A stretch of 64,000 nucleotides of DNA from an uncultured Coriobacteriaceae bacterium (GTDB taxonomy: Bacteria; Actinomycetota; Coriobacteriia; Anaerosomatales; CAZWGV01): positions 211 to 64,210 of the forward strand of contig CAZWGV010000002.1 of assembly GCA_964633595.1 (NCBI GenBank), written 5' to 3'. The stretch's first letter is position 1. Each line of letters begins with the position of its first letter. Positions 2-57,702 of the stretch are shown here, piece after piece. The notes under the pieces are model-generated. The model had not been told where the DNA came from. It searched no databases and saw only the letters and a list, made by a program, of their open reading frames with translations. The translations under genes were made by a program, and so were the position numbers.

Positions 2-874
2 ACCGGTGCCGACTTGGCCAACCTCGTGAACGAGGCGGCGCTGCTCTCGGCGAGGCATGGCAAGAAGCTCATCGACATGCACGAGCTCGAAGAGGCCATC
101 GAGCGCGTTGTGGCTGGGCCGGAGCGCAAGACCAAGCTCATATCCGACAAGGAGAAGAGGGTCATCGCCTATCACGAGGCCGGGCACGCGCTGGTGGGCC
201 ACGTGCTCCCCCACACCGACCCTATCCACAAGATCTCGATCATCGCGCGAGGTCAGGCGCTGGGCTACACGCTGGCGCTGCCCAATGAGGACCGCTTCCT
301 CATCTCTCGCGGCGAGATGCTCGACAACCTCGCTATGCTCCTGGGTGGTCGGGTTGCCGAGGAGCTAGCCATCGGCGATATCACCACCGGCGCCTCCAAC
401 GACATCGAGAAGGCCACGAAGACCGCAAAGCAGATGGTCATGCGCTACGGCATGTCCGAGAAGCTGGGGCCGCAGACGTTCGGCGACGCGCAGCACGAGG
501 TCTTCCTGGGCCGCGACTTCTCGGCCAACGCGGACTACAGTCCCGAGGTGGCCTACGAGATCGACAAGGAGGTCTCCCGGCTGATCGACGAGGCCTTCGA
601 CAGCGCGCACACGATCTTGCAGGAGCGCCGCGCGCAGCTCGACCTCATGGCGGACGTGCTCATCGAGCGCGAGACCGTGGACAAGGACGAGCTGGAGGCG
701 CTGCTCGAGGGACGCTGGCACGAGTTCGTGGAGGAGGAGCGTCGCGCCAAGGAGGGCGGGGCGCCCGGCGACTCGGGCAGCGAGAGCAAGCCCGCGGGGG
801 AGGGCGAGGCTCCCCAGTCGGAGCCGAAGCAGGCGCCGCCAAAGACTCCGCCGCTCGTGGTTCCCGAAGCCTAG
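2..874 (+). CDS. ftsH: ATP-dependent zinc metalloprotease FtsH, C-terminal ~290 aa (5' end outside window)
   Basis: The frame is open from base 2 (TGADLANLVNEAALL). It contains the HEAGHAL HEXXH zinc site of peptidase M41 and an acidic/Pro-rich tail. Stop TAG at 872-874. Confidence 0.95.
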   Translation, partial: TGADLANLVNEAALLSARHGKKLIDMHELEEAIERVVAGPERKTKLISDKEKRVIAYHEAGHALVGHVLPHTDPIHKISIIARGQALGYTLALPNEDRFLISRGEMLDNLAMLLGGRVAEELAIGDITTGASNDIEKATKTAKQMVMRYGMSEKLGPQTFGDAQHEVFLGRDFSANADYSPEVAYEIDKEVSRLIDEAFDSAHTILQERRAQLDLMADVLIERETVDKDELEALLEGRWHEFVEEERRAKEGGAPGDSGSESKPAGEGEAPQSEPKQAPPKTPPLVVPEA

Positions 875-931
875 ACGCGCGTCCGACAGCACCCGCTAGC
901 AGCGGCCATGAGGTTTGAGCAATCCTTCGCG

Positions 932-940
932 TGGTACAAT
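932..940 (+). promoter_or_regulatory. candidate extended -10 promoter element TGGTACAAT upstream of the kinase/regulator pair
   Basis: An AT-rich TGnTAnnnT 9-mer lies in the ftsH-kinase intergenic region of very GC-rich DNA. The same pattern recurs upstream of three other operons in this window. No convincing -35 element. Confidence 0.3.
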
Positions 941-1005
941 ACCTCTGACTCTGGGTGCGCTGAGGGGCGGCGCGTCCAACGACGACCGCACCCAGGGGGG
1001 TGGCC

Positions 1006-2253
1006 GTGTCAGTACATGGCGACGCGCATGGTGTCCCTCTCTCGAGCCCCGGTGGGAGCTCGGCTCTCGGCGACGACGTCCAACTCACCCTTCCGACCTT
1101 CGGTCCAAGGAGCTTCCGCTCACGTCTGCGGGACGCACTCTTCCCTCATCGCAGTCAGCGAGAGCTGATCAGCTCGCTCAATGACGTTGCGTCGGCGGTC
1201 TCCTCGAAGCTGTCTGTGGAGGAGGTGCTGGAGACCGTCGTGGAGCGCGCGAAGCGCGTGACCAACACGGACAAGGCGGTACTCTGCCTGGTAGACGAGC
1301 ACAGCGTCGGCGATCTCATGGACATCGACACCATGGTCGTCAAGGGTGCGCGCCACGAGCATCCGGAGGCCTGGTGGGGTGGCATGCTGGGGCGGATCGC
1401 CGAGACGGTGTTCGAGTCGGGTGAGCCGTACCTCGAGCTCAACAAGCTGAATCGCGCGTGGCTGCTGTGTGCGCCGATCAAGGTGAAGGACAAGTCGATC
1501 GGGCTGCTGTGCGCGATCAACGCGCAGACGGACAAGTTCTCTGCCGAGCAGGTGGACTTCCTGGCCATCTTGGGCGCGTTCGCGGCTACAGCCATCGAGA
1601 ACGCCAGGCTCGCCGAGCAGAGCCGCTACGTCCTGCTCGCCAGCGAGCGCGACCGCATCGCGCGCGAAATGCACGACGGCATCTCACAGTCGCTATTCTC
1701 GATCTCGCTCGGGCTGGAACTCTGCAAGAAGCAGGTGCATCGCGACCCGCCAGGCGTCGCGCGCCGTCTCGACGAGCTCCAGGACCAGCTCTCGGTGGGC
1801 ATGGCCGAGCTGCGCCGCTTCATCTACGACCTCAGACCGCTGAAGCTCCAGGAGCTGGGGCTCTCGGGAGCGATCGAGTATTGGATCCACGCGATCACGA
1901 GCGGCGATCATCTGGTAGGCGATCTGAAGGTGGAGGGAGAGATACGGCATCTCGGCCCGTCCGTGGACGCGTGCCTCTACCGGGTGGCCAAGGAGGCCGT
2001 GAGCAACGTCGTCAAGCACGCGCAAGCCTCGCGATTCGAGGTGCGCCTCGTCTACGCCGATGATCATGTGCAGCTGATAGTTGAAGACGACGGGACCGGC
2101 TTCGACCCAGCCCTCGCGCTGGAGCGTGCCGAGACGGGCGCATCGCTCGGCATAAAGAGCATCCAGGAGAGGGTGAGGAGCGAGGGTGGCAAACTCGACA
2201 TCCTGCGCAGGGAAGACGGCGGCGCCGTGGTCTCGGTGACTCTGCCTTTCTAG
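1006..2253 (+). CDS. soluble GAF-domain sensor histidine kinase (HisKA_3 type, NarL-family partner)
   Basis: H-box ERDRIAREMHDGISQSLF (HisKA_3) and ATPase motifs LIVEDDGTGF and SLGIKSIQERV. A GAF-like region precedes the H-box and no TM segment is present. The start could be GTG 1000 or 1006; AGGGGGG at 994-1000 favours 1006. Confidence 0.85.
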   Translation: MSVHGDAHGVPLSSPGGSSALGDDVQLTLPTFGPRSFRSRLRDALFPHRSQRELISSLNDVASAVSSKLSVEEVLETVVERAKRVTNTDKAVLCLVDEHSVGDLMDIDTMVVKGARHEHPEAWWGGMLGRIAETVFESGEPYLELNKLNRAWLLCAPIKVKDKSIGLLCAINAQTDKFSAEQVDFLAILGAFAATAIENARLAEQSRYVLLASERDRIAREMHDGISQSLFSISLGLELCKKQVHRDPPGVARRLDELQDQLSVGMAELRRFIYDLRPLKLQELGLSGAIEYWIHAITSGDHLVGDLKVEGEIRHLGPSVDACLYRVAKEAVSNVVKHAQASRFEVRLVYADDHVQLIVEDDGTGFDPALALERAETGASLGIKSIQERVRSEGGKLDILRREDGGAVVSVTLPF

Positions 2254-2266
2254 AGGGGCATGGCGG

Positions 2267-2923
2267 ATGAGCACAGTGAAGACGATCAAGACCTTCATCG
2301 TTGACGATCACGAGCTGGTACGGCTCGCTCTTCGCACGCTGCTGGATGCCGAGCCGGATATCGAGGTGATCGGGGAGGCGGGTGACGGCGAGCGTGCCGT
2401 CGAGCTGATCTGCGCCGACCCACCGGACGTACTCGTGCTCGACCTCAGGATGCCGAGCGTGGGAGGCGTCGAGGTCTGCCGCAAGGTCAAGGAGTCGTGC
2501 CCCCAGGTGCGGGTGCTAGTGCTGACGAGCTACGACGAAGACGACGAGGTGTTCGGCGTGCTGAGCGCGGGGGCTAGCGGCTACGTGATGAAGGACGCGC
2601 GGCCGGAGACGGTGGTACAGGCGGTGAGGTCCGTCTTCGACGGTCAGGCCGTCTTCGACCAGGGCATCGCGCAGCGGGTCATCGAGGGTCCGCAAGCCTC
2701 TCCCGCAGAGGCCGAGGGCCTCTCCGAGCGGGAGCTCGAGGTGTTGCATCTGATGGCTGCCGGCAACAGTAACAAGGAGATAGCCGGTACGCTGTGGATC
2801 TCCGAGACTACCGTGAAGACCCACGTCAGCCATATCCTGCGCAAGCTCGGGCAGACCGACCGTACTCAGGCGGTCCTGCGGGCCGTGCGAAACGGCATCG
2901 TCAAGCTGGAAGCCGAGACGTAG
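2267..2923 (+). CDS. response regulator, NarL/LuxR family
   Basis: Receiver motifs FIVDDHELV and VLVLDLRMP, plus the LuxR HTH LSERELEVLHLMAAGNSNKEIAGTLWISETTVKTHVSHILRKLG. It starts 13 nt after the kinase stop. Confidence 0.93.
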   Translation: MSTVKTIKTFIVDDHELVRLALRTLLDAEPDIEVIGEAGDGERAVELICADPPDVLVLDLRMPSVGGVEVCRKVKESCPQVRVLVLTSYDEDDEVFGVLSAGASGYVMKDARPETVVQAVRSVFDGQAVFDQGIAQRVIEGPQASPAEAEGLSERELEVLHLMAAGNSNKEIAGTLWISETTVKTHVSHILRKLGQTDRTQAVLRAVRNGIVKLEAET

Positions 2924-2936
2924 CAGGCCCTCCGCG

Positions 2937-2958
2937 GCGTCATGCGACCGCATGACGC
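2937..2958 (+). terminator. perfect 10-bp inverted repeat GCGTCATGCG-AC-CGCATGACGC just after the regulator stop (hairpin or protein-binding palindrome)
   Basis: The palindrome was read directly from the sequence, 14 nt downstream of the stop at 2923. No U-tract follows and the loop is very tight, so a terminator role is uncertain. Confidence 0.3.
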
Positions 2959-3184
2959 GCCATCATCCCAAAGAACGACCAAACCTATCGTCGTGATGAC
3001 CCCCAGGTAGAGACGGTTGCAGGATGGTCTGCGCGGGTCTTCGCGGGGAGAATCGCCACAACGGAACATTGGCTTACCGCTGGCACCGGGTCCCAGCGTC
3101 CCTCTCATCGGGGTCGCGCGATGACCCCGAAGCGACGAGAAGGGCCGGCGGACCCGAGGCAGACGGGGGGAGGTGTGACTGGAC

Positions 3185-3349
3185 ATGATGGCTAAGTTCA
3201 ACACCTGGCTGCAGAGCGAGGAGGGTGCCACCGCCGTCGAGTACGGCATCATGGTTGCCCTGATCGCGGTTGTCATTATCAGTGTCGTCACTTTGCTCGG
3301 CGGAGGTCTGCGGGAGACCTTCCAGAGCGTCGTAAACGCGCTCCCGTAG
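3185..3349 (+). CDS. flp: Flp-family type IVb prepilin (54 aa, below the ORF-track size cutoff)
   Basis: Hand translation gives MMAKFNTWLQSEEGATAVEYGIMVALIAVVIISVVTLLGGGLRETFQSVVNALP. It shows the Flp motif G/ATAVEYG followed by a hydrophobic helix. RBS GGGGGGAGGTG lies upstream and the gene sits directly 5' of the tad genes. Confidence 0.87.
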   Translation: MMAKFNTWLQSEEGATAVEYGIMVALIAVVIISVVTLLGGGLRETFQSVVNALP

Positions 3350-3363
3350 GCGATTCGATGGCA

Positions 3364-3412
3364 GGCCGGGACCCGAGAGGTTGAGCGCGTTTCGGGTCCC
3401 GGCCTTCTTTTT
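3364..3412 (+). terminator. rho-independent terminator after flp
   Basis: A 13-bp perfect stem, GGCCGGGACCCGA (3364-3376) with TCGGGTCCCGGCC (3392-3404), is followed by TTCTTTTT (3405-3412). Confidence 0.8.
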
Positions 3413-3520
3413 GGTATGTCCGTTCGGGCAGGACTAAGTGCTCGGATGGGAAAGTACCTGGTGGTCGTAGAAGGCGGCAGCTGTGGCGAACGGCGGAGAG
3501 GGACCGGGGGCTGATCGAGG

Positions 3521-3973
3521 ATGAAGGTGTTCTTCCGCGAATCGCCGGGTGGACTTCGTGAGCGCTGCCCATTACATTCGCGCCGCCGCCGTCGTGCTGA
3601 CGGCGGCGCGGCCGCTGTCGAGTTTGCGATCGTCTCCGGCGTGCTCGTTCTGCTCCTGCTCGGCCTGACACAGTTCGGCGTGATCTTCTATCAGTGGCTC
3701 GAGCTGGAGCACGCCGCGCGTGAAGGAGCGCGCTCCGCAGCCCTTTGGACCACCGACGACGTTGTTCGCAAGACCGTCCAGGACGCGGCACCCGGCATCA
3801 CAATAGGGGCGGGCGCGATCACCATCGCGCGCCCCGCCGGGGCCGTCACGGGACATCCGGTGACGGTCACGGTGCGGCACAACGCACCCATCCTGGCACC
3901 CCTGATGGGGGAGCTTTTCGGCGGGGGCGGCACGGTACGTCTGGTGGCTTCGGCGACCCAGAGGATCGAGTGA
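3521..3973 (+). CDS. tadE: TadE-like pseudopilin
   Basis: N-terminal TadE motif GGAAAVEFAIVSGVLVLLLLGLTQFG followed by a small beta-rich domain. Its position is right after flp. Confidence 0.8.
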   Translation: MKVFFRESPGGLRERCPLHSRRRRRADGGAAAVEFAIVSGVLVLLLLGLTQFGVIFYQWLELEHAAREGARSAALWTTDDVVRKTVQDAAPGITIGAGAITIARPAGAVTGHPVTVTVRHNAPILAPLMGELFGGGGTVRLVASATQRIE

Positions 3974-3979
3974 AAGGCG

Positions 3980-5560
3980 ATGATCCGGATGAGGACGCTG
4001 CTGAAGAGTGACGATGGAGCGGTTGCCGTGGTGGCAGGCGTATCGCTGTTGGCGCTCCTCATGCTGTCAGCACTCGTCGTGGATGTCGGCTACTGGTACA
4101 ACGTGCGCCGGCAACTCCAAGCCGCCGCCGACGCTGGAGCTCTGGCCGGATGCCAGGAGCTGATAAACACCTCGAGCCCCAGCGCGGCCAATGCGCTTGC
4201 GGAAGAGTACGCGATGAGCAACGACGATCGCCCGGCCGACGGCATGGTCGTGGATGAGGTACAGGTAGGCTCCGACTACGTCACGGTGAAGACGGCCAAG
4301 GATGCGCCGGCCTGGCTGGCCGGTCTCTTCGGCAGCTCCGGAAAGCGCATCACCGCGACGGCCAAGGCTGTCGCGACACCCCTCTCTGGCGTGCGCCGAC
4401 TCGTGCCATGGGCGCTTCCCATCATCGATGTGGTCGACCGGGTAGAGGTTGCGATCGTCTCGGGCAAGACGGTGCTCGGCACATGGAACCTGTCGAGTGT
4501 CGACGACGTGACCTACTCTGGTGCGATCACGGCACCGATCGGTCCCGGCTCGTATGACGTGCGCGTTCGCGTCTACAACACACATGGCATCTGGGAGGGC
4601 CTTGTCGACAATGAGGGCAAGGACATCCCGGCTGCCCGGCTGACGGTACCTGAACCAACCGCCGTGATCTCGGGTGTCTCGCTCAGCCGAGCATTCGTCA
4701 ACGCTCAGAACCCGGAACCTGTGCTCGTGACCGTGCGCACGTCGTCTCCCCAGGCGAAGATGAGTATCAAGCTCGGCAATAAGGCCAAGGTGATGACGCC
4801 GAACGCAAGTGGCACTGAGTTCACCTATATGATCGGACCGGTCGACATGCCGCCCGAAGACGATCTGCTCACGCTTCTGGCCGTTGATGCGTATCCGGGG
4901 AGCAAGGATGACGGCGTCGATGCGTACGTGCTCAGGAGGCGGACAACTCACGTCATCGGCGGAGTAGATGTGGGTTCGCCCACTGGGCAGTTCTATGTCG
5001 CAAGCGGCAGCTCTGTGCCTGTCAAGGTCAATCTGCACGAGTATGCCAATCACGTCCATGACGGGACGCTCTATACGCTAAGAGTCGCTGGAGGATCCGG
5101 TGAGGTAGGCAACTACTGCGAGCTCAACTTCAAGGCGATCACCCATCTCCCGGGATGTCCGCCGGACGCCCCGGGGGCTGCGAACCCGCTTACCCCTGAG
5201 ACATACTACGGCTGGACAGCGTACGGGTACGACCTAGGGATACATGTAGGCGATGTCATCACCACCAGTCCCGGCAACAGCGGGGCCAATACGCAGAAGG
5301 CCCTCGACTTCAGGTTCGCTCGTCTTTCGCCCGAAGAGCGCGTTGTGCACGTGCCGATCGTCGAGAAGATCGAGGCGAAAAAGGGCGGTGCGTACGACGT
5401 CAAGGTCGTGAACTACGGTGCATTCCGGGTTACCGACTACGGCAAGGATGGCTCTGTTCGGGGCTACTTCCTGCAGTACACACCGACTCCGGGATCCTAC
5501 GGACCCGGCGGTGGCGGTCCGGGATACAGTAGCCTAGGTGCGCGCCTTGTGATGCCATAG
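3980..5560 (+). CDS. tadG: large TadG-like pilus-associated protein (TadE/G-like N-terminal domain)
   Basis: The N-terminus DDGAVAVVAGVSLLALLMLSALVVDVGYWYNVRRQLQAAADAGALAG is typical of the Tad (TadE/G-like) domain. A ~430-aa extracytoplasmic region follows, and I saw no DxSxS MIDAS motif in it. Confidence 0.7.
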   Translation: MIRMRTLLKSDDGAVAVVAGVSLLALLMLSALVVDVGYWYNVRRQLQAAADAGALAGCQELINTSSPSAANALAEEYAMSNDDRPADGMVVDEVQVGSDYVTVKTAKDAPAWLAGLFGSSGKRITATAKAVATPLSGVRRLVPWALPIIDVVDRVEVAIVSGKTVLGTWNLSSVDDVTYSGAITAPIGPGSYDVRVRVYNTHGIWEGLVDNEGKDIPAARLTVPEPTAVISGVSLSRAFVNAQNPEPVLVTVRTSSPQAKMSIKLGNKAKVMTPNASGTEFTYMIGPVDMPPEDDLLTLLAVDAYPGSKDDGVDAYVLRRRTTHVIGGVDVGSPTGQFYVASGSSVPVKVNLHEYANHVHDGTLYTLRVAGGSGEVGNYCELNFKAITHLPGCPPDAPGAANPLTPETYYGWTAYGYDLGIHVGDVITTSPGNSGANTQKALDFRFARLSPEERVVHVPIVEKIEAKKGGAYDVKVVNYGAFRVTDYGKDGSVRGYFLQYTPTPGSYGPGGGGPGYSSLGARLVMP

Positions 5561-5608
5561 CGGGACCGGTGTTTGGAGCAAGGGAAGCGATTTCCGAGGG
5601 GGACGCCC

Positions 5609-6379
5609 ATGCGTTCGAAGATCCTGATACTGGTGGTGGCCCTGGTCTTGGGCGGACTGGCAGCGATCCTGGCCGCGCGCTACATCACCGGCGCGCGCTC
5701 CACGATCGAAGCTGAGAGCAAGCCCGTGAAGGTGCTCGTTGCCGCCGAGGACATCCCGCGGGGGCTATCGGCTGAGGAACTGCTCTCCAAGAAGCTGATC
5801 CTTCGCCAGGAGGTGCCGGCCAGATTTGTCGCCGCAGGCGCGATCTCCTCAGAGCGTGGGATTGAGGGCCAGGTTCTCGCGACGCCCCTTTCGAAGGGGG
5901 AGCAGGTCACCCGTGCCCGCTTCCAAATCCCCAGCCAGGCCGGGCTTGCCTACAGTGTCCCCAAGGATGTAGTTGCGATCACCATACCGGTCAATGAGGA
6001 GCGTGGTGTTGCAGGTCTCGTCAAGCCTGGCGACCACGTGACTGTCTTCGCCAGCTTCAAGAAGGCCGGCGGCGAGGCCGACGAGAACGTGACCAAGATG
6101 CTCCTTCCCGGCGTTCGAGTTCTTGCGGTCGGATCCTCGCTCGCGGCGGAGGAGGCGGCTGCCGATGAAGCCGGTGGGCAGCGTGGATTCGTTTCGAGCG
6201 ACCGGGCAGGGGCGGCGCAGCAGATTCCAACCGCGATGACGCTGGCGGTCACCGCGCCGGAGGCCGAGCGGCTGGTATTCGCTCTTGAGAACGGCGACAT
6301 CTGGGTAGGTCTTCTGCCAGCGACCGCGACCCAGCTACCGGCCACCAAGGGGCAGACCTACCAGTCGGTGCTGAGGTAG
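5609..6379 (+). CDS. cpaB: Flp pilus assembly protein CpaB/RcpC family
   Basis: N-terminal TM segment ILILVVALVLGGLAAILAARYI, a SAF-like segment VLVAAEDIPRG, and LVKPGDHVTVF. ATG 5609 is preceded by GAGGGGG (5596-5602). Confidence 0.8.
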   Translation: MRSKILILVVALVLGGLAAILAARYITGARSTIEAESKPVKVLVAAEDIPRGLSAEELLSKKLILRQEVPARFVAAGAISSERGIEGQVLATPLSKGEQVTRARFQIPSQAGLAYSVPKDVVAITIPVNEERGVAGLVKPGDHVTVFASFKKAGGEADENVTKMLLPGVRVLAVGSSLAAEEAAADEAGGQRGFVSSDRAGAAQQIPTAMTLAVTAPEAERLVFALENGDIWVGLLPATATQLPATKGQTYQSVLR

Positions 6380-6386
6380 CGTCGAC

Positions 6387-7553
6387 ATGGCCTCCGTCCT
6401 GATCGTTGAGCCCCCCTCGGACTTCGTCGACCAAATGGGCGTCCTGTTGGGTGCCGATGCCGATGTGGTGCTTTCCACGGTCGGGACGCTTGAGGAAGCC
6501 GAGTTGGTTGTTGCCGAGACCCCGCCTCACGTAGTCCTGGTGGGTCCAGGGATCGTCGGCGAGCGTGCGCTGGCATTCGCTCAGAGTATCGCCGTCGCAG
6601 GGAAGTGCACGGCCGTCGTGCTGATTGCCCCTGAGCTCACCACCGAACTGCTCCGCAGCGCCCTGCATGCGGGCGTGAGTGATGCGGTAGCCGCCGATGA
6701 CAAGGCCACAGAGATACACGCGGCGGTACGACGCGCGATCACCACCGCCGAAGGCGCGCGGCTCACTACGCCAGCGAGTGTGGAGGAGCCTGAGGAGAGC
6801 GGACTCGCCAGGGTCATTTCGATCTTCGGGACCAAGGGAGGAGTTGGAAAGACCGTCCTCGCCACCAATCTCGGAGTAGCACTGAGCAAGATGATGGGTA
6901 AGCGCACGATCCTCGTCGACCTAGATCTGCAGTTCGGAGATTGTGCGATCATGCTAGGCCTGAAGCCTGCCAGAACGATTCTTGATGCTGTGAAGGCTCT
7001 GGACCGACTGGACGCCGACATGCTCGGCAGCATGCTCGTCGAGCACCCTTCCGGTCTGCGCGTGCTCCTAGCTCCGGTGCAGCCCGAGGACGCGGAGTCG
7101 GTAACGACGACGCGCATCAATCACATAGTCAGCCTTCTGCGCGAGATGGCTGACTATGTGGTGATCGACACGGCCGCCACTCTCGACGAGACGGTACTCG
7201 CCGCGCTCGACAGGAGTGATTCCGTCTGCGCTGTGACGATGATGGATGTTGCGAGCATCAAGAACACCAAGATCTCGCTACAGAAGCTGCGCCAGCTTGG
7301 CTACCAGAACGGTCTCATGCGCGTGATTCTGAATCGAGCGGACAGCAAGGTCTGGCTCGAGCCCGGTCAGGTGGAGCAGGCGATCAGTTCGAAGATCTGG
7401 GTTCAGGTGCCGAGCGACAGAGTCGTTCCGCGCTCAGTGAACAAGGGTGTCCCAGTAGTTCTTGAGGCTCCGAAGAGCGAGGTCGCCCGGAGCATCCTGT
7501 CCATCGCCAAGAAGATGGTCGAAGAAGAGGAGGCGACCGATCATGTCGCTTAG
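6387..7553 (+). CDS. tadZ: TadZ/CpaE ParA/MinD-like ATPase with N-terminal receiver-like domain
   Basis: Deviant Walker A ISIFGTKGGVGKTVLATNLG, a ~130-aa N-terminal receiver-like fold, and a position between cpaB and tadA. Confidence 0.87.
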   Translation: MASVLIVEPPSDFVDQMGVLLGADADVVLSTVGTLEEAELVVAETPPHVVLVGPGIVGERALAFAQSIAVAGKCTAVVLIAPELTTELLRSALHAGVSDAVAADDKATEIHAAVRRAITTAEGARLTTPASVEEPEESGLARVISIFGTKGGVGKTVLATNLGVALSKMMGKRTILVDLDLQFGDCAIMLGLKPARTILDAVKALDRLDADMLGSMLVEHPSGLRVLLAPVQPEDAESVTTTRINHIVSLLREMADYVVIDTAATLDETVLAALDRSDSVCAVTMMDVASIKNTKISLQKLRQLGYQNGLMRVILNRADSKVWLEPGQVEQAISSKIWVQVPSDRVVPRSVNKGVPVVLEAPKSEVARSILSIAKKMVEEEEATDHVA

Positions 7554-8916
7554 GGACCGTCTCACCCGCGGGGTGGACACACCTCAACCGGTCCAGGACG
7601 CCGTCTCCGCAGGCAAGGTGGTGGCCAGGAACACGGCGACGCAGGACGCCAAGGACGCCATCAAACGTGATGTCCACTACCTCTTGATAGAGGAGCTCGG
7701 GACGCAGCTGGACGGGGACGACCCCTCGATTCGCTTCCAGATCGAGCGGAAACTCCAGGAACTCATCGGACAGGAGTCTACGCCGCTCTCGGCAGAGGAC
7801 AAGCGCGAGATCGTGGGCGACGTCCTTGACAACATGCTCGGCTACGGCCCCATCACGCCGCTGCTGGCTGACCCGAGCGTCACGGAAGTGATGGTGAACA
7901 ACGCCGACCGGGTCTACATAGAGCGCGGGGGCAAGATTCTCCAGACCGACAAGCGCTTCATCGACGAGCAACATCTTGTGCGCACGATCGACCGCATAGT
8001 CAGCCAGGTGGGTCGCCGAATCGACGAGAGTTCGCCAATGGTCGACGCTCGCTTGCCTGACGGCTCGCGCGTCAACGCCGTCATCCACCCGCTCGCCATC
8101 AATGGGCCGATGCTGACGATACGCAAGTTCGCGCACGATCCGTTCACGGTCGACGACCTTATCGGCTTCGGTACCCTTGACCCCAAGGTCGCGTCATTCC
8201 TGGACACGTGCGTTCGAGGGCGATTGAATGTAGTGATCTCGGGGGGCACGGGCAGCGGCAAAACAACGCTGCTGAACGTTATGTCCTCGTTCATCCCAGC
8301 CGATGAGCGCATAGTCACCATTGAGGACGCCGCCGAATTGCAGCTTCGGCAGGAGCATGTGCTGCGTCTCGAGTCCAGGCCCCCCAACATCGAGGGCAAG
8401 GGGCAGGTCACAATCCGGGATCTCGTCCGCAACTCGTTGCGCATGCGTCCCGATCGCATCGTCGTGGGCGAGGTACGTGGTGGCGAGGCGCTCGACATGT
8501 TGCAGGCTATGAACACCGGCCACGATGGCTCTCTCACGACCATCCACGCGAACTCCCCCCGCGACGCCCTTGCGCGCATCGAGACGATGGTACTAATGAG
8601 CGGGCTCGACCTGCCGGTCCGGGCCACTCGCGAGCAGATTGCATCGGCGCTCAACTTGCTTGTGCACCTCGCTCGACTCCGTGACGGTACGCGGCGTGTC
8701 GTCCAGGTCTGCGAGCTGCAGGGCATGGAGGGTGACACTGTCGTGCTTCAGGATCTGTTCTACTTCGACTACTCCATGGGCATCGACGACTCAGGTCGCT
8801 TCCGGGGACACATCAAGGCCACCGGCCTCCGCCCGAAGTTCTCGCGGCATCTCGAGGATCTTGGACTACCGATGCCCGCTGAGATGTTCGAGTACGAGCC
8901 TCCCGAGAAGAGGTGA
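7543..8916 (+). CDS. tadA: TadA/CpaF secretion ATPase
   Basis: Walker A ISGGTGSGKTTLLN, Asp box RIVTIEDAAELQL, Walker B RPDRIVVGEVRG and His box GHDGSLTTIHANS. ATG 7543 overlaps the tadZ stop. The upstream part of the 7462 ORF overlaps tadZ and is not coding. Confidence 0.95.
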   Translation: MSLRDRLTRGVDTPQPVQDAVSAGKVVARNTATQDAKDAIKRDVHYLLIEELGTQLDGDDPSIRFQIERKLQELIGQESTPLSAEDKREIVGDVLDNMLGYGPITPLLADPSVTEVMVNNADRVYIERGGKILQTDKRFIDEQHLVRTIDRIVSQVGRRIDESSPMVDARLPDGSRVNAVIHPLAINGPMLTIRKFAHDPFTVDDLIGFGTLDPKVASFLDTCVRGRLNVVISGGTGSGKTTLLNVMSSFIPADERIVTIEDAAELQLRQEHVLRLESRPPNIEGKGQVTIRDLVRNSLRMRPDRIVVGEVRGGEALDMLQAMNTGHDGSLTTIHANSPRDALARIETMVLMSGLDLPVRATREQIASALNLLVHLARLRDGTRRVVQVCELQGMEGDTVVLQDLFYFDYSMGIDDSGRFRGHIKATGLRPKFSRHLEDLGLPMPAEMFEYEPPEKR

Positions 8917-8920
8917 TAGG

Positions 8921-10852
8921 GTGCGGTCGCGTGCGCTGCTGGCGGGTCTGCTGACGCTATCGCTGCTCATTCCCGCCGGGATCACGGTGCAGGCGGCGGA
9001 TGGAGGAGGACTGACAGCTGTCGTCCAGGGCCTGGACACCTCGGCCTACCCGAAGGTCGTGCTGACAGTCATTCTCCCCGCAGAGCTCGTGCAGGGCGGA
9101 GCGAAGGTCGAGAAGGTCGAGGTCCGCGAAAACGGTTCGACGCTCTCGGATGTGGCATTTGACGCCGAGGTGAGCCGGACCGAGGCCGTCGACGTGATCC
9201 TGGTGATGGACACAAGCGGCAGTATGAAGGGCGCGCCACTGGACAACGCCAAGAAGGCCGCCAGGGCGTTCGTCGGCAAGCTGCGCGGAGATAGCCGCGT
9301 CGCCATTGTGGGCTTCAGCTCGCGTCCCCGACTGGCTGTCGGATACACAGAGGACAGATCACGGCTTCTCAGCGTTGTGGACGGCCTCGAGGCGGGTGGC
9401 GAGACCGCGCTCAACGATGCCGTTGTGACCGCGCTTGGACTGGTGCAGAGAAGCCAGCAGGGTCGGGCGAACATCGTTCTCCTATCGGACGGCGGAGACA
9501 CAACGAGCATCAACTCGCTCGACAACGTAGCCAAGCGCCTTAAGGAGGCGCGCACGCCCATCTATGCGATCGCGCTCGAGAGCGACGAAGCCAACGTGCA
9601 AGCGCTTCGAGTGCTCGCCGGGCAGTCGGGTGGCAGACTGCTCGCCGTGAAGGACGCGTCCACACTCGCGGGTCTTTACGAGGGCATAGCCAATGAGCTT
9701 CAGAGCCGATACTCGGTGACGTTCACTGGACGAGAGCCGAACACCAAGGATCTGGACTTCGACGTGGTTGTTGTGGCCGGGGGTCGCGAGGCCAGGGGGA
9801 GCACTGTCGCTGAGAACCCGCAGTTCGCGGATGTTGAGCTGCTGGCCGGCACGGGCCTCTCCGAGGTGCGCCCAGCCAATCCACTCTATCTGTTCTGGGC
9901 TGTCGCGCTAGCCTTCGGCGCTGTCGTCTTGCTGGTTGTGGGGGGCGTGCTGCTCATTGTGAGGCCCGGCACCGCGTTGGAGCATCTGGCGTACTACGAG
10001 CAGCTTAGAAGGAGAGCCGATGCGCTCCCTACCGGCGAGGATGCAGATGACACATCGGTGAAGGCCCGAATGGTCGGGGCGGTGGAGTACCTGGCCGGGA
10101 AGCGGGGCATAACCCCATATGTCGCACGCAGACTGATCCAGGCGGACCTGCCTCTCAGGCCAGCTGAGTACATAGCCGCACATCTGCTTCTCGTAGTCGG
10201 TGTCGGCACACTCCTGCAGCTTGTGTCGGGCTCGGTGATACTGAGTCTCGGGTCGGTTCTACTGGCTACCATCTTGCCGATGATGTGGGTTCAGTTCCGA
10301 GTAGACAGGCGCCGAGCCCGGTTCGAGGAGCAGCTTCCCGAGCTGCTGTCGCTAGTAGCCGGATCGCTCAGGGCGGGCTGGGGGATGCAGCAGGCGATCG
10401 ACCTGGTGGTAGAGGAGATGCCCCCGCCGGTCTCGACGGAGTTCAAGCGGGTCCAGGTGGAGACACGACTCGGCTTGGATCTTGAGGAGTCTCTGAGAGC
10501 GCTTGCGGAGCGGATCGAGAGCGATGACTTCCGCTCGGTGGTAACGGCCGTCGCCATACAGCGCGAGGTCGGCGGCAACCTGGCAGAGGTGCTCGATATC
10601 GTGGCGAACACGATCAGAGAGCGCGAGTCGCTTAGGCGGCATGTACGCGGTCTCACCGCCGAGGGTAGGATGTCAGCCGTGGTGCTCGTCATCTTGCCCT
10701 TCGCCCTATTCCTCATGATTACTCTGGTTAACCCAAACTACATGGGGCAGCTCGTGGCGCACTGGTTCGGCTTCGCGCTGGTCGTCTTCGGCCTTGTGCT
10801 GCTCGCCATGGGGGTCTGGTGGCTCCTTCGAGTCTCAAGGATCGAGGCCTGA
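8921..10852 (+). CDS. tadB: fusion protein: signal peptide + von Willebrand A domain + TM + TadB (T2SS-F platform) domain
   Basis: GTG 8921 lies 5 nt after the tadA stop. N-terminus VRSRALLAGLLTLSLLIPAGITVQAADG; vWA MIDAS VMDTSGSM (nt 9209-9223); TM segment LYLFWAVALAFGAVVLLVVGGVLLIV. The T2SS-F domain follows: FEEQLPELLSLVAGSLRAGWGMQQAI ... AIQREVGGNLAEVL. Confidence 0.8.
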   Translation: MRSRALLAGLLTLSLLIPAGITVQAADGGGLTAVVQGLDTSAYPKVVLTVILPAELVQGGAKVEKVEVRENGSTLSDVAFDAEVSRTEAVDVILVMDTSGSMKGAPLDNAKKAARAFVGKLRGDSRVAIVGFSSRPRLAVGYTEDRSRLLSVVDGLEAGGETALNDAVVTALGLVQRSQQGRANIVLLSDGGDTTSINSLDNVAKRLKEARTPIYAIALESDEANVQALRVLAGQSGGRLLAVKDASTLAGLYEGIANELQSRYSVTFTGREPNTKDLDFDVVVVAGGREARGSTVAENPQFADVELLAGTGLSEVRPANPLYLFWAVALAFGAVVLLVVGGVLLIVRPGTALEHLAYYEQLRRRADALPTGEDADDTSVKARMVGAVEYLAGKRGITPYVARRLIQADLPLRPAEYIAAHLLLVVGVGTLLQLVSGSVILSLGSVLLATILPMMWVQFRVDRRRARFEEQLPELLSLVAGSLRAGWGMQQAIDLVVEEMPPPVSTEFKRVQVETRLGLDLEESLRALAERIESDDFRSVVTAVAIQREVGGNLAEVLDIVANTIRERESLRRHVRGLTAEGRMSAVVLVILPFALFLMITLVNPNYMGQLVAHWFGFALVVFGLVLLAMGVWWLLRVSRIEA

Positions 10853-10853
10853 C

Positions 10854-11789
10854 ATGGCGACTCTTGCACTCGCCGCGTCCTTGGCAGGCGTAGCAGGCGG
10901 ACTCGCTGTCTACGCGTTGCTCGGTATCGTCTTCTCGGAGCAATCGCAGGTCCAGCGCCGATTGCGCGGGATGTCCGCCTACGAGACCACGCAGGCGCTA
11001 GAAGCGCAGCCACTTCTGCAGCCATTTGGCGAGCGGATCGTGAGGCCTCTGGCGCGGCGGCTGAGTGAGACCGTCCAGAGCCTGGGGCCGAGCGACTACA
11101 AGGAGCGGCTGCGCGAGCGTGTCATGCTCGCAGGCGATCCCGGAGGTATGGATGTCGGCAGGTTCATGTCCGCCAAGATTCTGCTGGGCTTTGGGTCACT
11201 CGTGCTCTTCGTCGTTGTCGCGTTCATCATGTCGCTAGCACCGCTTTCGTGGCTGCTGTTCGGGATTCCCCTTGTCGCCCTTGGGTTCTTCGCTCCCGAC
11301 CTGTGGCTGCGTTCCAGGATCGAGGAGCGCCAGAAGGCCATTCGCAGGGCGCTGCCCGACATGCTCGACATGCTGAACATTAGCGTGGAGGCAGGCCTTG
11401 GCTTCGATGCCGCCTTGGCCAAGATCGTCAAGGCGAGCGCCGGACCACTGTCGCAGGAGTTCGCTCGCACCCTGAAGGAGATCCAGTCGGGTCTGTCGAG
11501 GGGTGATGCGCTCCGCAGTCTCGCACGACGCACCCAAGTCCCCGAGCTTAGCTCGTTCATCATGGCCATAGTTCAGGCCGAGCAGTTTGGTATTTCGGTG
11601 AGCACAGTGCTGCGCACCCAGGCGAAGGAAATGCGGCTCAAGAGGCGCCAGCTCGCCGAAGAGCAGGCGCAGAAGCTACCGGTCAAGATAGTGTTCCCGC
11701 TGGTGCTGTGCATTCTGCCCGCGACGATGATCGTCATCTTGGGCCCTGCAGTGGTGTCGATCGGTGGGGCGATGGGCTTCATCAACTGA
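10854..11789 (+). CDS. tadC: TadC platform protein (T2SS-F family)
   Basis: ATG 10854 lies 1 nt after the tadB stop. T2SS-F domain motifs ALPDMLDMLNISVEAGLGFDAAL and IVQAEQFGISV, flanked by TM segments. Confidence 0.88.
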   Translation: MATLALAASLAGVAGGLAVYALLGIVFSEQSQVQRRLRGMSAYETTQALEAQPLLQPFGERIVRPLARRLSETVQSLGPSDYKERLRERVMLAGDPGGMDVGRFMSAKILLGFGSLVLFVVVAFIMSLAPLSWLLFGIPLVALGFFAPDLWLRSRIEERQKAIRRALPDMLDMLNISVEAGLGFDAALAKIVKASAGPLSQEFARTLKEIQSGLSRGDALRSLARRTQVPELSSFIMAIVQAEQFGISVSTVLRTQAKEMRLKRRQLAEEQAQKLPVKIVFPLVLCILPATMIVILGPAVVSIGGAMGFIN

Positions 11790-11872
11790 GACGGAGGCGT
11801 ACCGACTATCGGTTCTGCAGCCCGTGGTCTGCGGGACCACGCGGGGCATGTGGAGATCACGGGGAGGAACAC

Positions 11873-14800
11873 ATGTACGGATCAAAGGGACTTGTTGCGG
11901 TGCTGGCCCGCTCATCTCTGGCCTGCGCGCTGGTCTTGTCCGTTTGGGCAGCTGCTGCGCCTGGACTTACCGCAGCCCCCGGCGTCGAGCAGTATCGGTA
12001 CTCGGCTCGATGGCCGCGACCTACGTGGCACTTGAGCAAGCCTGCTGGTGTGGCGATGAGTACCTCCGGGATCGTGTACGTGGCAGATCGGGACAATAAC
12101 CGTATCGAGGTTTATGCGCGCTCAGGCGAGCGTCTGGGCCGGTGGGGTGAGTCCGGCACATCGATTGGCCGCTTTCGTGCGCCGACGGGCGTCACAGTCG
12201 ATCCATCGGGCTCTGTGTATGTAACCGACCGGGACAACCATAGGGTGCAGAAGTTCACGGCCGCAGGCGTGCCGGTGCTGCAGTGGGGCGGGTCGGGCAC
12301 GGCGGTGGGCCAGCTCAGCATGCCAACTGGCATCGCGGTCGACACAGTCGGCAACGTATACGTAGCCGACACCGGCAACAACCGCATCCAGAAGTTCGAC
12401 GCGAACGGAAACCACCTGGCGTCTTGGGGGACCCCGGGGTCGGGTGCCGGGCAGTTTCTCTCCCCGAAGGGTGTGGCGGTGGACTCGCTTGGGAACGTCT
12501 ATGTCGCCGACACCAACAACCAGCGGATACAGAAACTGAACTCGAGCGGAGTCTTCCAATCCGCGTGGGGCATCCGTGGCACGCTGAACGGTCAGTTCAA
12601 AGACCCCGAGGGCGTGAGCGTGGATTCGGCGGCGAACGTCTATGTCGCTGACACGAACAACCACCGTGTGCAGAAGTTCTCGTACAACCCGGGCAGCGGC
12701 GCCCACATCTACGAGACGCAGTGGGGCAGCAAGTACAACACCTCGAGTTCGGAGGATTGGGAGTTTGACGATCCGAGCGGCATTGCGGCGGTGAGCACCC
12801 CGGATGGGATCCACGTCTATGTGGCTGACACCGACAACGATCGCATCCAGGTGTTCTCGACCGCCGGTGCCGGGTTGATGATAGGCGGGAGCTGGGGCAA
12901 GAGCGATGCGCGGTTCAAGTACGCGGCTGACGTGGCGGCCGGTTCGGGTGGCGTCTATGTCGTCGACCGCGACAACAGCCGAGTCCAGCGCTTCACGAAT
13001 GAGGGCCTGTTCGTTGGCAAGTGGGGCACCTATGGCACCACTCAGAACAACCAGTTCAACAAGGCGCTCGGAGTAGCGTGCGACTCGGCCGGCAACGTCT
13101 ACGTTGCGGACACCGGCAACCACAGGGTTCAGAAGTTCGCGGCCAACGGGTTCTTCTGGACTAAATGGGGGAGCAGTGGAAGCCAGAACGGGTGGTTCTC
13201 AAGCCCCAAGGCTATCGCGTGCGCCGGGGCCGACTACGTCTACGTGGCTGACAGCGGCAACAACCGCATTCAGCGCTTCTCGGCTCTAGGTGAGTACCAG
13301 ACCAAGTGGGGCACGCTCGGCTCGGGAGAGGGCGGCTTCAGCAACCCGTCGGGTGTGGCGGTGGATCCGTCCGGCAACGTATACGTGGCCGATACGGGCA
13401 ACCACAGGATTCAGAAGTTCACCAGGGATGGCGGATTCCTGTTGGCGTGGGGAGCTCTCGGGACTGGGACAGGCCAGTTCTCCTCGCCCAACGACGTCGC
13501 ATGTGACGCCGACGGCAACGTATTCGTGGCCGACACGGGCAACCACAGGGTTCAGAAGTTCGGGCCGTCCGGTACGCCACTCGCGTCCTGGGGAATCCAG
13601 GGCTCCGAGGAGGGCGAGTTCTGGTCGCCGACGGGCATCGCGGTCGACAGTGCCGGCTATGTGTACGTGGCCGACCGCGACAACCACCGTGTCCAGCGGT
13701 TCGTCCCACCCATGAGCGTCGCGATCAGCGGGGTGGAGGAAGGTCGGGCGTATCGGACCTCGGTCACATGGGGCGTCAGCTTCGTCGGGACGGGCATCAC
13801 GGCCAGGACGATCACCTTCAACGGCATCCCTGTGCCTTGGGAGCCGCCGGAGACACGTAGGACTGTCAGTGTCGACGGAGCCTATTCGCTGAGCGCTGTG
13901 GCCAGGGATGCTGGCGGTGAGGCTTCGCGTACCGTGCGCTTCACCATAGATCGCACGCCTCCCAAGACCGTAGCGAGTGCCGCCGCCACCTACGATGACG
14001 TGGCGAAGGTCCACCTTGGCGCCACCGACGCGCTTTCAGGAGTGGACCGTACATACTACCGGTTGGGCGACGGCCCACTGACAGAGGGAGCCATCGCCAC
14101 AGTTACGAGAGCGAGCGGATCGCACAGGCTGGAGTTCTGGTCTGTTGACAAGGCTGGCAATGAGGAGTCGCGGACTGCGATCACCTTCGCGGTGAGGGAT
14201 ACTCTGCCGCCCGTTACCACGAGCGACGCGAAATCGTCGTATGAGAGTACTGCGACAGTCCGGCTCTCGGCGACCGATGCGGGCTCGGACGTGGCTGCCA
14301 CGTACTACACGCTGAACGGAGGCGCGATCACCACCGGGACCGTCATCAGCGCAGGCGACCCGGGATCTCACGAGGTCAAGTTCTGGTCGGTGGACTCGCT
14401 GGGTCATATCGAAGAGACAAGAACGGCCGCATTCCACGTCACAGTTGGCAGTCGCATCGCGCTAAGCGCTAGCCCGGTCCGGCTGACGTACGGAGGAAGC
14501 CTGAGGCTAGTGGCGACGCTGACCCGCCAGAATGATGGGCGTGCACTTCCGGAGCAGCGGGTGATATTCGAGCACTGGCATCGCGGGCGCTGGACGCATC
14601 TCGGATCCACTGACTCGGCCACGGGGGTCCATGTGGCGTACACGAAGCCGTGGGCGAACAACATATACAGGGCACGCTTTGGGGGATCCGATGACGTGCT
14701 TCCATCTGCCAGCTCGGTCCAACGCGTTCAGGTTCGTGCCAAGCTGACAGCCCCGTATGCACCCAGCGTGGCCTATCGCAACCGTGCGTTCACCACCTAC

Positions 14801-15040
14801 GGTTGGATGACGCCCAGACACTGGAGTGGCCGCATTCTCATCCGCTGCGAGCGCTACGAGAACGGCCGGTATGTCTTGCGTCGGACGTATTGGGCACCTC
14901 TCTATCGCGTCTACAGCTACAACCGCTACGTGGGCAGTGTGTCTCTTCCCTACGCTGGCCAGTGGCGCCTGAGGGCGTACCACGCAGACGCGACTCACAT
15001 CGCCAGCTACAGCCCACCGAGGTACCTCACCGTGAGGTAG
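11873..15040 (+). CDS. secreted 12x NHL-repeat protein (two six-bladed propellers) with C-terminal Ig-like repeats
   Basis: ATG 11873 follows the RBS GGGGAGGA. Signal peptide MYGSKGLVAVLARSSLACALVLSVWAAAAPGLTA. There are twelve copies of VYVAD-x2-N-x-R(I/V)QKF. Two ~75-aa repeats follow (TYYRLGDG...LEFWSVDKAGNEE and TYYTLNGG...VKFWSVDSLGHIEE). Confidence 0.87.
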   Translation: MYGSKGLVAVLARSSLACALVLSVWAAAAPGLTAAPGVEQYRYSARWPRPTWHLSKPAGVAMSTSGIVYVADRDNNRIEVYARSGERLGRWGESGTSIGRFRAPTGVTVDPSGSVYVTDRDNHRVQKFTAAGVPVLQWGGSGTAVGQLSMPTGIAVDTVGNVYVADTGNNRIQKFDANGNHLASWGTPGSGAGQFLSPKGVAVDSLGNVYVADTNNQRIQKLNSSGVFQSAWGIRGTLNGQFKDPEGVSVDSAANVYVADTNNHRVQKFSYNPGSGAHIYETQWGSKYNTSSSEDWEFDDPSGIAAVSTPDGIHVYVADTDNDRIQVFSTAGAGLMIGGSWGKSDARFKYAADVAAGSGGVYVVDRDNSRVQRFTNEGLFVGKWGTYGTTQNNQFNKALGVACDSAGNVYVADTGNHRVQKFAANGFFWTKWGSSGSQNGWFSSPKAIACAGADYVYVADSGNNRIQRFSALGEYQTKWGTLGSGEGGFSNPSGVAVDPSGNVYVADTGNHRIQKFTRDGGFLLAWGALGTGTGQFSSPNDVACDADGNVFVADTGNHRVQKFGPSGTPLASWGIQGSEEGEFWSPTGIAVDSAGYVYVADRDNHRVQRFVPPMSVAISGVEEGRAYRTSVTWGVSFVGTGITARTITFNGIPVPWEPPETRRTVSVDGAYSLSAVARDAGGEASRTVRFTIDRTPPKTVASAAATYDDVAKVHLGATDALSGVDRTYYRLGDGPLTEGAIATVTRASGSHRLEFWSVDKAGNEESRTAITFAVRDTLPPVTTSDAKSSYESTATVRLSATDAGSDVAATYYTLNGGAITTGTVISAGDPGSHEVKFWSVDSLGHIEETRTAAFHVTVGSRIALSASPVRLTYGGSLRLVATLTRQNDGRALPEQRVIFEHWHRGRWTHLGSTDSATGVHVAYTKPWANNIYRARFGGSDDVLPSASSVQRVQVRAKLTAPYAPSVAYRNRAFTTYGWMTPRHWSGRILIRCERYENGRYVLRRTYWAPLYRVYSYNRYVGSVSLPYAGQWRLRAYHADATHIASYSPPRYLTVR
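12035..13710 (+). repeat. intragenic ~47-codon NHL repeat array (12 units)
   Basis: Twelve NHL units were counted in the translation. The DNA repeats motifs such as GTCTATGTCGCCGACACC...CGCATCCAGAAGTTC. Confidence 0.8.
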
Positions 15041-54633: not shown

Positions 54634-54709
54634 GGGGATGTAGCTCAGCTGGGAGAGCGCTACCTTCGCACGGTAGAGGCCGGCGGTTCGAATCCGCTCA
54701 TCTCCACCA
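54634..54709 (+). tRNA. tRNA-Ala (anticodon CGC)
   Basis: A 76-nt cloverleaf folded by hand: acceptor stem GGGGATG/CATCTCC with G3:U70, D arm GCTC-AGCTGGGA-GAGC, anticodon arm CTACC-TTCGCAC-GGTAG, T arm GGCGG-TTCGAAT-CCGCT, and an encoded CCA. Confidence 0.92.
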
Positions 54710-54837: not shown

Positions 54838-55068
54838 ATGGCAGGTGGCGTAGCTCCTGAAGGTATCACCGCGTGGGTAGCTCAGCACGGCCAGGTCCTA
54901 TTCTTTTTCGCCCAGATCGCGTTCTGGCTCCTGCTCGTAGGGGTACTCGCGTGGGCGACCTGGATCTTCAAGCGGTATGTGGACTTCGCTACAGGTGCGG
55001 TCGGCGAAGAAGAGGGCGGGGAGTCCTCCGATGACGAGGCTGTCTCCATCGAGGAGTTCGTCGAGTGA
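54838..55068 (+). CDS. small membrane protein with acidic C-terminal tail (hypothetical)
   Basis: ATG 54838 is preceded by TAAGGAGG. One or two TM helices (VLFFFAQIAFWLLLVGVLAWATWIF), then EEEGGESSDDEAVSIEEFVE. Confidence 0.55.
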   Translation: MAGGVAPEGITAWVAQHGQVLFFFAQIAFWLLLVGVLAWATWIFKRYVDFATGAVGEEEGGESSDDEAVSIEEFVE

Positions 55069-55133
55069 CTCACGTTCTGCCCGATCCCCTCGCGCGGGTT
55101 CGCGCCGAGTCCGGGAAGTGAACGGAGGGCGCC

Positions 55134-56114: not shown

Positions 56115-56201
56115 CCGACGGCTTCGATCCCGGCACGCGAGTAGCTCCTCGTTGCCCCGCCCGCAAGGCGCGGCACCACGGCTTCGTCCGGAGGAACACC
56201 G

Positions 56202-57701: not shown

Positions 57702-57702
57702 C

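Follow-up and report, generated by a model that had tools for sequence, protein, structure and literature searches.

A VWA domain fused to the TadB platform protein in Tad pilus loci of Actinomycetota

The window analysed here is a 64,000-nucleotide (nt) stretch of DNA from an uncultured Coriobacteriaceae bacterium of the Actinomycetota (NCBI GenBank assembly GCA_964633595.1, contig CAZWGV010000002.1, positions 211 to 64,210 of the forward strand), whose plus strand carries a complete locus for a tight adherence (Tad/Flp) pilus. The gene of this locus that encodes its TadB-type platform protein also specifies a domain of the von Willebrand factor A type (VWA) ahead of the TadB core, and we refer to the product as vWA-TadB. 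An earlier note, made from the letters of the sequence, had described a single 643-codon frame with a signal-peptide-like N-terminus, a VWA domain with an intact DxSxS motif of the MIDAS (metal ion-dependent adhesion site) and a complete TadB/T2SSF domain (T2SSF: type II secretion system F), all of which was confirmed by the sequence itself and by Pfam. The parts of the open reading frame (ORF) are given below in window coordinates, with their position in amino acids (aa) and the underlying evidence in brackets; TM denotes a transmembrane helix and pLDDT the predicted local distance difference test score.

8921..10852, + strand: vWA-TadB, complete 643-aa ORF including the stop codon, sole TadB-type platform gene of the locus
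8921..8995, + strand: Sec-type signal peptide, aa 1-25 (sequence, hydropathy, 30 homologues)
9005..9184, + strand: N-terminal half of a beta-sandwich, aa 29-88 (AlphaFold strands 34-82, conservation)
9185..9706, + strand: VWA domain, aa 89-262 (Pfam, invariant MIDAS columns, AlphaFold/Foldseek, PDB sequence matches)
9707..9820, + strand: C-terminal half of the beta-sandwich, aa 263-300 (AlphaFold strands 263-298)
9821..9880, + strand: flexible tether, aa 301-320 (pLDDT <50, low identity, variable length)
9881..9958, + strand: TM1, aa 321-346, predicted to run out-to-in (AlphaFold, hydropathy, comparison with unfused TadB)
9959..10159, + strand: cytoplasmic N-terminal helices of TadB, aa 347-413 (alignment to unfused Arthrobacter TadB, AlphaFold, hydropathy)
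10160..10303, + strand: TM2-TM3 hairpin, aa 414-461 (AlphaFold, hydropathy)
10304..10666, + strand: cytoplasmic T2SSF domain, aa 462-582 (Pfam, conservation)
10667..10852, + strand: TM4-TM5 and C-terminus, aa 583-643, with the stop codon (AlphaFold, hydropathy)

The fused reading frame, its conservation and its predicted fold

The frame at 8921-10852 is uninterrupted over its 643 aa. Two VWA models of Pfam match its N-terminal half, PF00092 at aa 91-253 (E 1.1e-20; 75 bits, with the cutoff at 23.8) and PF13519 (E 2e-19, 70.6 bits), and the T2SSF model PF00482 matches aa 476-601 (E 2.1e-21; 76.6 bits, with the cutoff at 25.2). These are the scans that the earlier note had proposed, and the matches lie well above the gathering scores. 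The DxSxS motif reads VMDTSGSM, with D97-S101 encoded by nt 9209-9223, as had been described. The start codon is a GTG at 8921, 4 nt past the tadA stop codon (TGA 8914-8916); a Shine-Dalgarno-like run, GAGAAGAGG, lies about 9 nt 5' of it, and the N-termini of homologues line up with this start in the alignment. The signal peptide comprises an MRSR n-region, a hydrophobic core and a V-Q-A/A site and has no twin-arginine motif; it contains no cysteine, and vWA-TadB is therefore not a lipoprotein.

The fusion is real and does not stem from a frameshift. The identical 643-aa protein, with TadC next to it, was called on an independently assembled Logan contig (SRR11582139). A word-indexed search of 5.8 billion clusters yielded 146 relatives, and both the VWA and the T2SSF domain of Pfam were found in 119 of the 120 relatives listed, most of which are 620-660 aa long; some shorter fragments and a single form of 891 aa are also among them. 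A profile was further compared exhaustively, by HMMER, with 1.84 billion representatives of 50%-identity clusters. Of the best 150 representatives, 149 score at least 604 bits and match both halves of the profile, and the lone exception is a 3177-aa protein with multiple VWA domains. Judged by these counts, the vWA-TadB family is large and its architecture not rare.

The earlier note had itself named a sequencing or assembly frameshift between separate VWA and tadB genes as the finding that would overturn it, and this was not borne out. High-GC genomes do yield spurious upstream ORF extensions, which were observed in several related loci, but no direct support for an artefact of this kind, or for a read-through joining the two genes, was found. 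Besides the identical independent assembly and the presence of both domains in most homologues, more than 140 cluster representatives share length and domain order, and the junction between beta-sandwich, tether and TM1 is kept in register among homologues. Moreover, a separate intact VWA gene beside an unfused tadB, which would represent the pre-fusion state, was sought in the related loci (79 loci kept, one genome per GTDB species) and found in none of them. We consider the chance of an artefact to be negligible.

Sequence comparisons with 30 homologues (32-49% identity) revealed that the MIDAS residues D97, S99, S101, T162 and D190 are invariant (30/30), as are the further columns G100, M102, G160, D166, G191, D193 and S196. 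By mean pairwise identity, the T2SSF domain is the most conserved part of the protein (57%) and the VWA domain the second (42%). The halves of the beta-sandwich reach about 26-28%, and the N-terminal half contains a near-invariant E70-x-G72 ('VxENG') motif. The tether has a mean identity of 14% and ranges from 17 to 46 aa across the family. An invariant MIDAS combined with a variable tether indicates that selection probably acts on the predicted metal or ligand binding of a flexibly tethered VWA domain.

An AlphaFold2 model was built from the 30-sequence alignment (mean pLDDT 82.7), in which the VWA domain (aa 91-261) adopts an alpha/beta Rossmann-type fold at pLDDT >90. The 'beta-rich linker' that had been described behind the VWA domain is indeed rich in beta-strands, but it is not a separate linker: it forms the second half of a beta-sandwich (aa 29-88 and 263-300) that brackets the VWA domain, and a disordered tether of about 20 aa follows. 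Similarly, the TM helix described ahead of TadB is present as TM1 but is not the only one, as AlphaFold and hydropathy give five. Behind the tether, TM1 leads into about 65 aa of cytoplasmic helices with a conserved 'LxxAxLPLRPxEY' stretch; a TM hairpin precedes the T2SSF domain, and a further pair of TM helices ends the protein. Foldseek searches of the PDB returned VWA proteins only, with ArnB (8s05), ITIH1 (6fpy, 6fpz) and a Catenulispora VWA protein (4fx5) as the top matches, followed by the single-domain vWF A3, ANTXR2 and BatB (probability 1.0, target-normalised template modelling score 0.7-0.8). A profile search of PDB sequences gave VWA chains only, and returned no T2SSF structure at E <=1e-3.

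A Sec-type signal peptide is present in 30/30 aligned homologues. Hydropathy analysis placed 11 lysine or arginine residues in loop 347-413 and 17 in loop 462-582, and none in loops 437-438 and 604-614. Because the T2SSF domain is taken as cytoplasmic, the TM count would put aa 26-320 outside, and the VWA module is predicted to lie on the outer face of the cytoplasmic membrane, which fits both the signal peptide and the positive-inside pattern of charges. The extracytoplasmic position given in the earlier note is thus supported as a prediction. In platform proteins, contact with the cytoplasmic ATPase is made by the T2SSF domain (PMC13170226).

The TadB part of the protein is collinear with TadBs that lack the ectodomain. 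In BLASTP, residues 378-642 match aa 46-309 (37% identity) of a TadB from Arthrobacter that is unfused, is 310 aa long and starts with a TM helix followed by RRR; vWA-TadB therefore corresponds to a canonical TadB whose N-out terminus is extended by a signal peptide and an ectodomain. Its C-terminal ~320 aa share the layout of TadB/CpaG (N-terminal TM, cytoplasmic helices, TM hairpin, T2SSF, C-terminal TM pair), and its gene likewise has tadA on one side and tadC on the other; the TadC encoded there is the expected paralogue, with 28% identity to it across the T2SSF region. In contrast to TadB/CpaG, it has an extra ~320 aa at the N-terminus, consisting of the signal peptide and the beta-sandwich/VWA (an exported module of ~295 aa). 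Characterised TadBs are proteins of about 290-320 aa without an ectodomain, and the unfused TadBs that we examined fit this norm, being about 310 aa long and beginning directly at TM1. At 643 aa and with an exported module, vWA-TadB is therefore a variant and not a canonical member of the TadB family.

The tad locus and the distribution of the fusion

The other genes that surround vWA-TadB in the complete Tad/Flp locus, all on the plus strand, are the following.

1000-2253, + strand: GAF-HisKA_3 histidine kinase (Pfam)
2267-2923, + strand: LuxR-type response regulator (Pfam)
3185..3349, + strand: Flp major pilin, 54 aa (…EEGATAVEYGIMVALIAVV…; Flp homologues in the same place in related loci)
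3521..3973, + strand: TadE-like minor pilin (Pfam TadE, E 8e-15)
3980..5560, + strand: TadG-like protein, with a Tad PF13400 N-terminus and all-beta domains and without VWA (Pfam, AlphaFold)
5573..6379, + strand: CpaB/RcpC (Pfam RcpC, TIGR03177)
6387..7553, + strand: TadZ/CpaE-type ParA/MinD ATPase (Pfam)
7462..8916 (longest ORF), + strand: TadA/CpaF motor ATPase (Pfam T2SSE, E 4e-68)
10854..11789 (Logan gene call; longest ORF from 10794), + strand: TadC, 311 aa (Pfam, gene call)

The start of TadA is probably slightly downstream of 7462, because the longest ORF overlaps tadZ. Pfam scans of the locus genes detected no secretin, and no prepilin peptidase (TadV) was identified among the scanned ORFs, which are a part of all ORFs of the window. 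The locus is flanked by chromosomal housekeeping genes (ftsH, folP, folK, panBC, nadABC, birA, hemAC and ccm). The gene order Flp-TadE-TadG-like-CpaB-TadZ-TadA-vWA-TadB-TadC is kept in 13 related loci, and none of these contains a second TadB.

The kinase and response regulator genes lie directly 5' of flp, and the same pair precedes the tad locus in the closer relatives (L002, L003, L004 and L008); in L006, a histidine kinase-response regulator pair is found downstream of the tad locus on the opposite strand. This arrangement suggests a dedicated two-component regulator of the pilus locus. Directly 3' of tadC, at 11873-15040, the window encodes a protein whose length is about 1055 aa if counted from the Logan start at 11873 and up to 1110 aa in the longest ORF, which begins at 11708. 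It contains a Big_13-like stretch and 10 or more NHL repeats, which form beta-propellers. CpaB/RcpC is present in secretin-less Actinomycetota loci with fused and with unfused TadB (window 5573-6379; L002-L015, L025-L027 and others); in a review of monoderm type IV pili, by comparison, RcpC is one of the components given as 'missing' from B. breve and M. luteus, which serve as monoderm models (PMC6916266).

Using our own VWA and T2SSF hidden Markov models (HMMs), we detected the fusion in 15 of the 79 loci (L001-L015), all from Actinomycetota. The hosts include metagenome-assembled genomes (MAGs) labelled Coriobacteriaceae, 'Actinobacteria bacterium HGW-6' and similar MAGs, MAGs of Acidimicrobiia/Acidimicrobiales, a Gaiellaceae MAG and unclassified Actinomycetota, as well as one cultured organism, Saccharothrix mutabilis JCM 3380 (L013:9848-11701), whose protein has both the signal peptide and the full MIDAS. 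Unfused TadBs were found in the retrieved loci of Chloroflexota, Bacillota, Planctomycetota, Arthrobacter, Cryobacterium and Modestobacter. In a neighbour-joining tree of T2SSF domains, which is crude and carries no support values, the fused TadBs all fall within the Actinomycetota TadB clade and are interleaved with unfused ones; the tree therefore does not decide between a single origin followed by losses and repeated gain. CpaB, TadZ, TadE and the TadG-like protein accompany fused as well as unfused TadBs, and a search across the loci for a component co-varying with the fusion gave none.

Several loci show variations of this arrangement. L005 (OW818687.1, a 2.5-Mb chromosome) contains at 249-14972 two tandem tad gene sets, each with a vWA-TadB (3539-5455 and 12119-14038) and a TadC, and the fused platform has therefore been duplicated together with the whole machine. 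Three proteins of about 890-900 aa (P0159, P0160 and P0086) have two tandem VWA domains before the TadB core. The TadB of L021 (9455-10792) has a signal peptide and a low-complexity stretch rich in proline, threonine and alanine ahead of TM1, with no folded ectodomain, and this is a different exported N-terminal addition at the same attachment point. In an Acidimicrobiia MAG with a fused TadB (L015), five tandem Flp pilin genes lie 5' of TadE at 1595-3654.

Two sets of candidate fusions were rejected. The tblastn matches of 1.6-2.7 kb in Chloroflexota, Bacillota, Planctomycetota and Longimicrobiaceae turned out, when VWA and T2SSF HMMs were applied to their ORFs, to be adjacent unfused TadB and TadC, and T2SSF ORFs of 445-790 aa in L023, L027, L029, L032, L040 and L068 owe their length to read-through from TadA or to a spurious extension at the upstream end, as high-GC DNA produces them. 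In L030, VWA fragments are located at 9803-11751 in two overlapping frames, 5' of a short T2SSF ORF, which looks like a frameshifted or decaying vWA-TadB or an error of MAG assembly. The TadA of L007 is broken into three ORFs.

Elsewhere in the window, a cluster at 24895-30416 encodes DUF4129, DUF4350, MoxR AAA_3 ATPase and DUF58-VWA_2 proteins and is a second, unrelated VWA-containing system. A 949-aa ORF at 54882-57731 on the minus strand has no Pfam match and is overlapped by several long plus-strand ORFs; it may be a non-coding shadow frame in high-GC DNA. A tRNA gene is present at 54634-54706 (+).

Origin of the VWA module

The VWA domain of Tad systems is better known from TadG-type proteins, and the earlier note had observed that the TadG-like protein at 3980-5560 lacks one. 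This observation holds: Pfam detects only PF13400, and the AlphaFold model (30-sequence alignment, pLDDT 83) consists of a long N-terminal helix followed by all-beta domains, whose PDB matches are weak and Ig-like (SiiE, intimin) and include no VWA. The further proposal that the domain had moved from TadG onto the platform was not supported. No Pfam VWA was detected in the TadG-like proteins of 10 fused loci (0/10) or of 20 unfused loci (0/20; Actinomycetota, a few Bacillota, one Gemmatimonadota and one unclassified), although Pfam might miss a strongly diverged VWA, like the split one of CpaL (PMC12607857), in TadG-like proteins that were not modelled. The domain goes undetected on both sides, so that there is no complementary distribution and the VWA of TadB replaces none that was lost from TadG in this lineage.

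MIDAS-containing VWA domains that serve type IV filament machines are found in TadG/CpaL of Aggregatibacter and Caulobacter, PilY1, PilC1 and S. sanguinis PilB (PMC12607857, PMC13170226). In these proteins, however, the VWA is carried by a pilin-like or pilus-associated protein that is thought to be at the fibre tip. Unlike TadG/CpaL, vWA-TadB has its VWA covalently tethered to the platform, bears a Sec signal peptide and has no pilin-like module (Pfam gave no PF13400 match), and it must remain at the membrane. The best NCBIfam match of the ectodomain is TIGR03436 ('acidobact_VWFA'), at 72.6 bits, below the cutoff of 81.25, over profile positions 67-298 of 324, and BatA-type models come next. 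These are the closest sequence families, the match to BatB (3ibs/4jdu) included, and they share the motifs DxSxS, GGxT and LSDGxDT with the ectodomain, but their members are stand-alone proteins with no link to pili.

Among PDB entries, the top structural and sequence matches of the ectodomain are ArnB, a Sulfolobus VWA plus beta-sandwich protein (8s05, 5a8j), and the ITIH heavy chains (6fpy, 9c4f), with sequence identities of only 12-16%. ArnB is cytoplasmic and acts with an FHA partner via phosphorylation. The archaellum, which is also a type IV filament, is regulated by a module to which ArnB belongs (PMC6509490).

A relocation of the VWA from a TadG/CpaL-type minor pilin, by which the platform would have taken over the tip-adhesin function, could account for the VWA-free TadG-like protein of this locus. 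Set against it are the TadG-like proteins of the unfused loci, which likewise have no detectable VWA, the Sec signal peptide in place of a prepilin leader, the affinity of the ectodomain to TIGR03436, BatA/BatB and ArnB/ITIH-like VWAs and not to pilin-linked ones, and the fact that a membrane-tethered domain cannot reach the pilus tip, and we hold this relocation to be very unlikely. The signal peptide and the family affinities instead point to a putative captured module, derived from a stand-alone exported VWA protein.

Proposed role of the ectodomain and its significance

To our knowledge, monoderm Tad machines have neither a secretin nor an alignment complex of the PilMNOP type. The analysis identifies vWA-TadB as the genuine TadB platform subunit of a secretin-less actinobacterial Tad (type IVc, Flp) pilus machine, with an exported module as an addition to the N-out terminus of a canonical TadB. 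We propose, with about even confidence, that the ectodomain serves as a MIDAS-dependent extracytoplasmic docking or alignment module. If the platform were a trimer of TadB-TadC heterodimers, three tethered VWA modules would surround the pilus exit site; a trimer of this kind has been modelled for Caulobacter CpaG/CpaH, with the stoichiometry and position of the platform (PMC13170226). The MIDAS metal would bind the carboxylate of an acidic residue in a putative partner, the likeliest candidates being components of the machine or fibre, namely the TadE/TadG-like priming complex, Flp or CpaB, and the module would thereby stabilise or prime assembly in a machine that has no secretin. MIDAS VWA domains are recurrent in priming and tip complexes of type IV pili, and that of CpaL has been proposed to end up at the pilus tip (PMC12607857).

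Some observations weigh against a docking role of this kind. Closely related Actinomycetota tad loci combine an unfused TadB with an otherwise identical gene set, CpaB included; the module is therefore dispensable for the basic machine, as an accessory that is not required. The full AlphaFold model has a predicted template modelling score of only 0.47 and therefore does not predict where the VWA lies with respect to the membrane domain. Finally, the NHL-repeat protein encoded 3' of tadC adjoins the fusion in no related locus and is unique to this genome; it is not kept with the fusion and therefore gives no clue to the ligand. The VWA module may serve an accessory or environmental role, and the coupling of substrate or cell-wall contact to pilus assembly, which the earlier note had put forward, is speculation.

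The tether and the helices behind it bear on a different mechanism, an outside-in switch, in which the VWA domain would sense a ligand or the pilus load at the base and signal via TM1 to the TadB helices (aa 347-413), biasing the engagement of the TadA/CpaF hexamer and so controlling assembly, or extension versus retraction. One TM helix directly links the ectodomain to these cytoplasmic helices, which a preprint based on AlphaFold 3 models and mutants has proposed as the trigger of CpaF inversion (10.64898/2026.02.24.707734, 2026), and the VWA domains of PilY1 are discussed as mechanosensors in work cited in PMC12607857. However, a disordered tether of 17-46 aa is ill suited to passing on force or conformation, and the CpaF-inversion mechanism of the preprint is itself a model. 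We regard this switch as unlikely, and give slightly less credence still to the stronger form, in which the platform protein itself gates extension versus retraction, or start versus stop, in response to an outside ligand or load through the MIDAS, TM1 and the N-terminal helices.

Alternatively, the VWA domain could bind a cell-wall polymer or an external substrate independently of pilus components, and would then anchor the machine in the thick monoderm envelope or provide short-range adhesion. Adhesion is a common function of VWA/MIDAS domains, the families closest in sequence (BatA/BatB and TIGR03436) are membrane-anchored or secreted VWA proteins with no pilus link, and variants with tandem VWA domains before TadB exist, as is usual for adhesins. 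On the other hand, a domain held within 20-46 residues of the cytoplasmic membrane is unlikely to extend past the wall, and the fact that VWA and TadB are invariably fused one-to-one, even in distant classes, speaks for a function within the machine. An envelope anchor or adhesin seems to us as improbable as the outside-in switch.

Proteins of the vWA-TadB type are already labelled by annotation pipelines, as 'VWA domain-containing protein', 'tight adherence protein B' or 'type II secretion system F family protein'. Full-text searches of the literature that is available without subscription found no published description or test of a VWA-TadB or VWA-T2SSF protein, in line with the statement of the earlier note that no description of the architecture was known, and neither reviews of Tad and monoderm type IV pili nor surveys of their evolution mention it. 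Taken together, the analysis revealed a widespread and conserved variant of TadB that is apparently unstudied, although its sequences have been catalogued.

As far as we know, the platform proteins of type IV filaments are regarded as polytopic, with their functional domains on the cytoplasmic side. An extracytoplasmic MIDAS domain on the platform, as predicted here, would add a new contact point exactly where pilins leave the membrane, and the recurring association of type IV pili with VWA domains, so far one of tip proteins, would then include the machine's base. What holds the monoderm Tad assembly complex together has been stated as an open question (PMC6916266), and a large conserved family with a cultured host, Saccharothrix mutabilis JCM 3380, would offer a mutable handle on the cohesion of this complex. 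The protein represents the accretion of a domain on a well-known machine, for which a role is proposed only; the placement of a predicted ligand-binding domain on the platform is nevertheless conserved and unexpected, and it is experimentally tractable.

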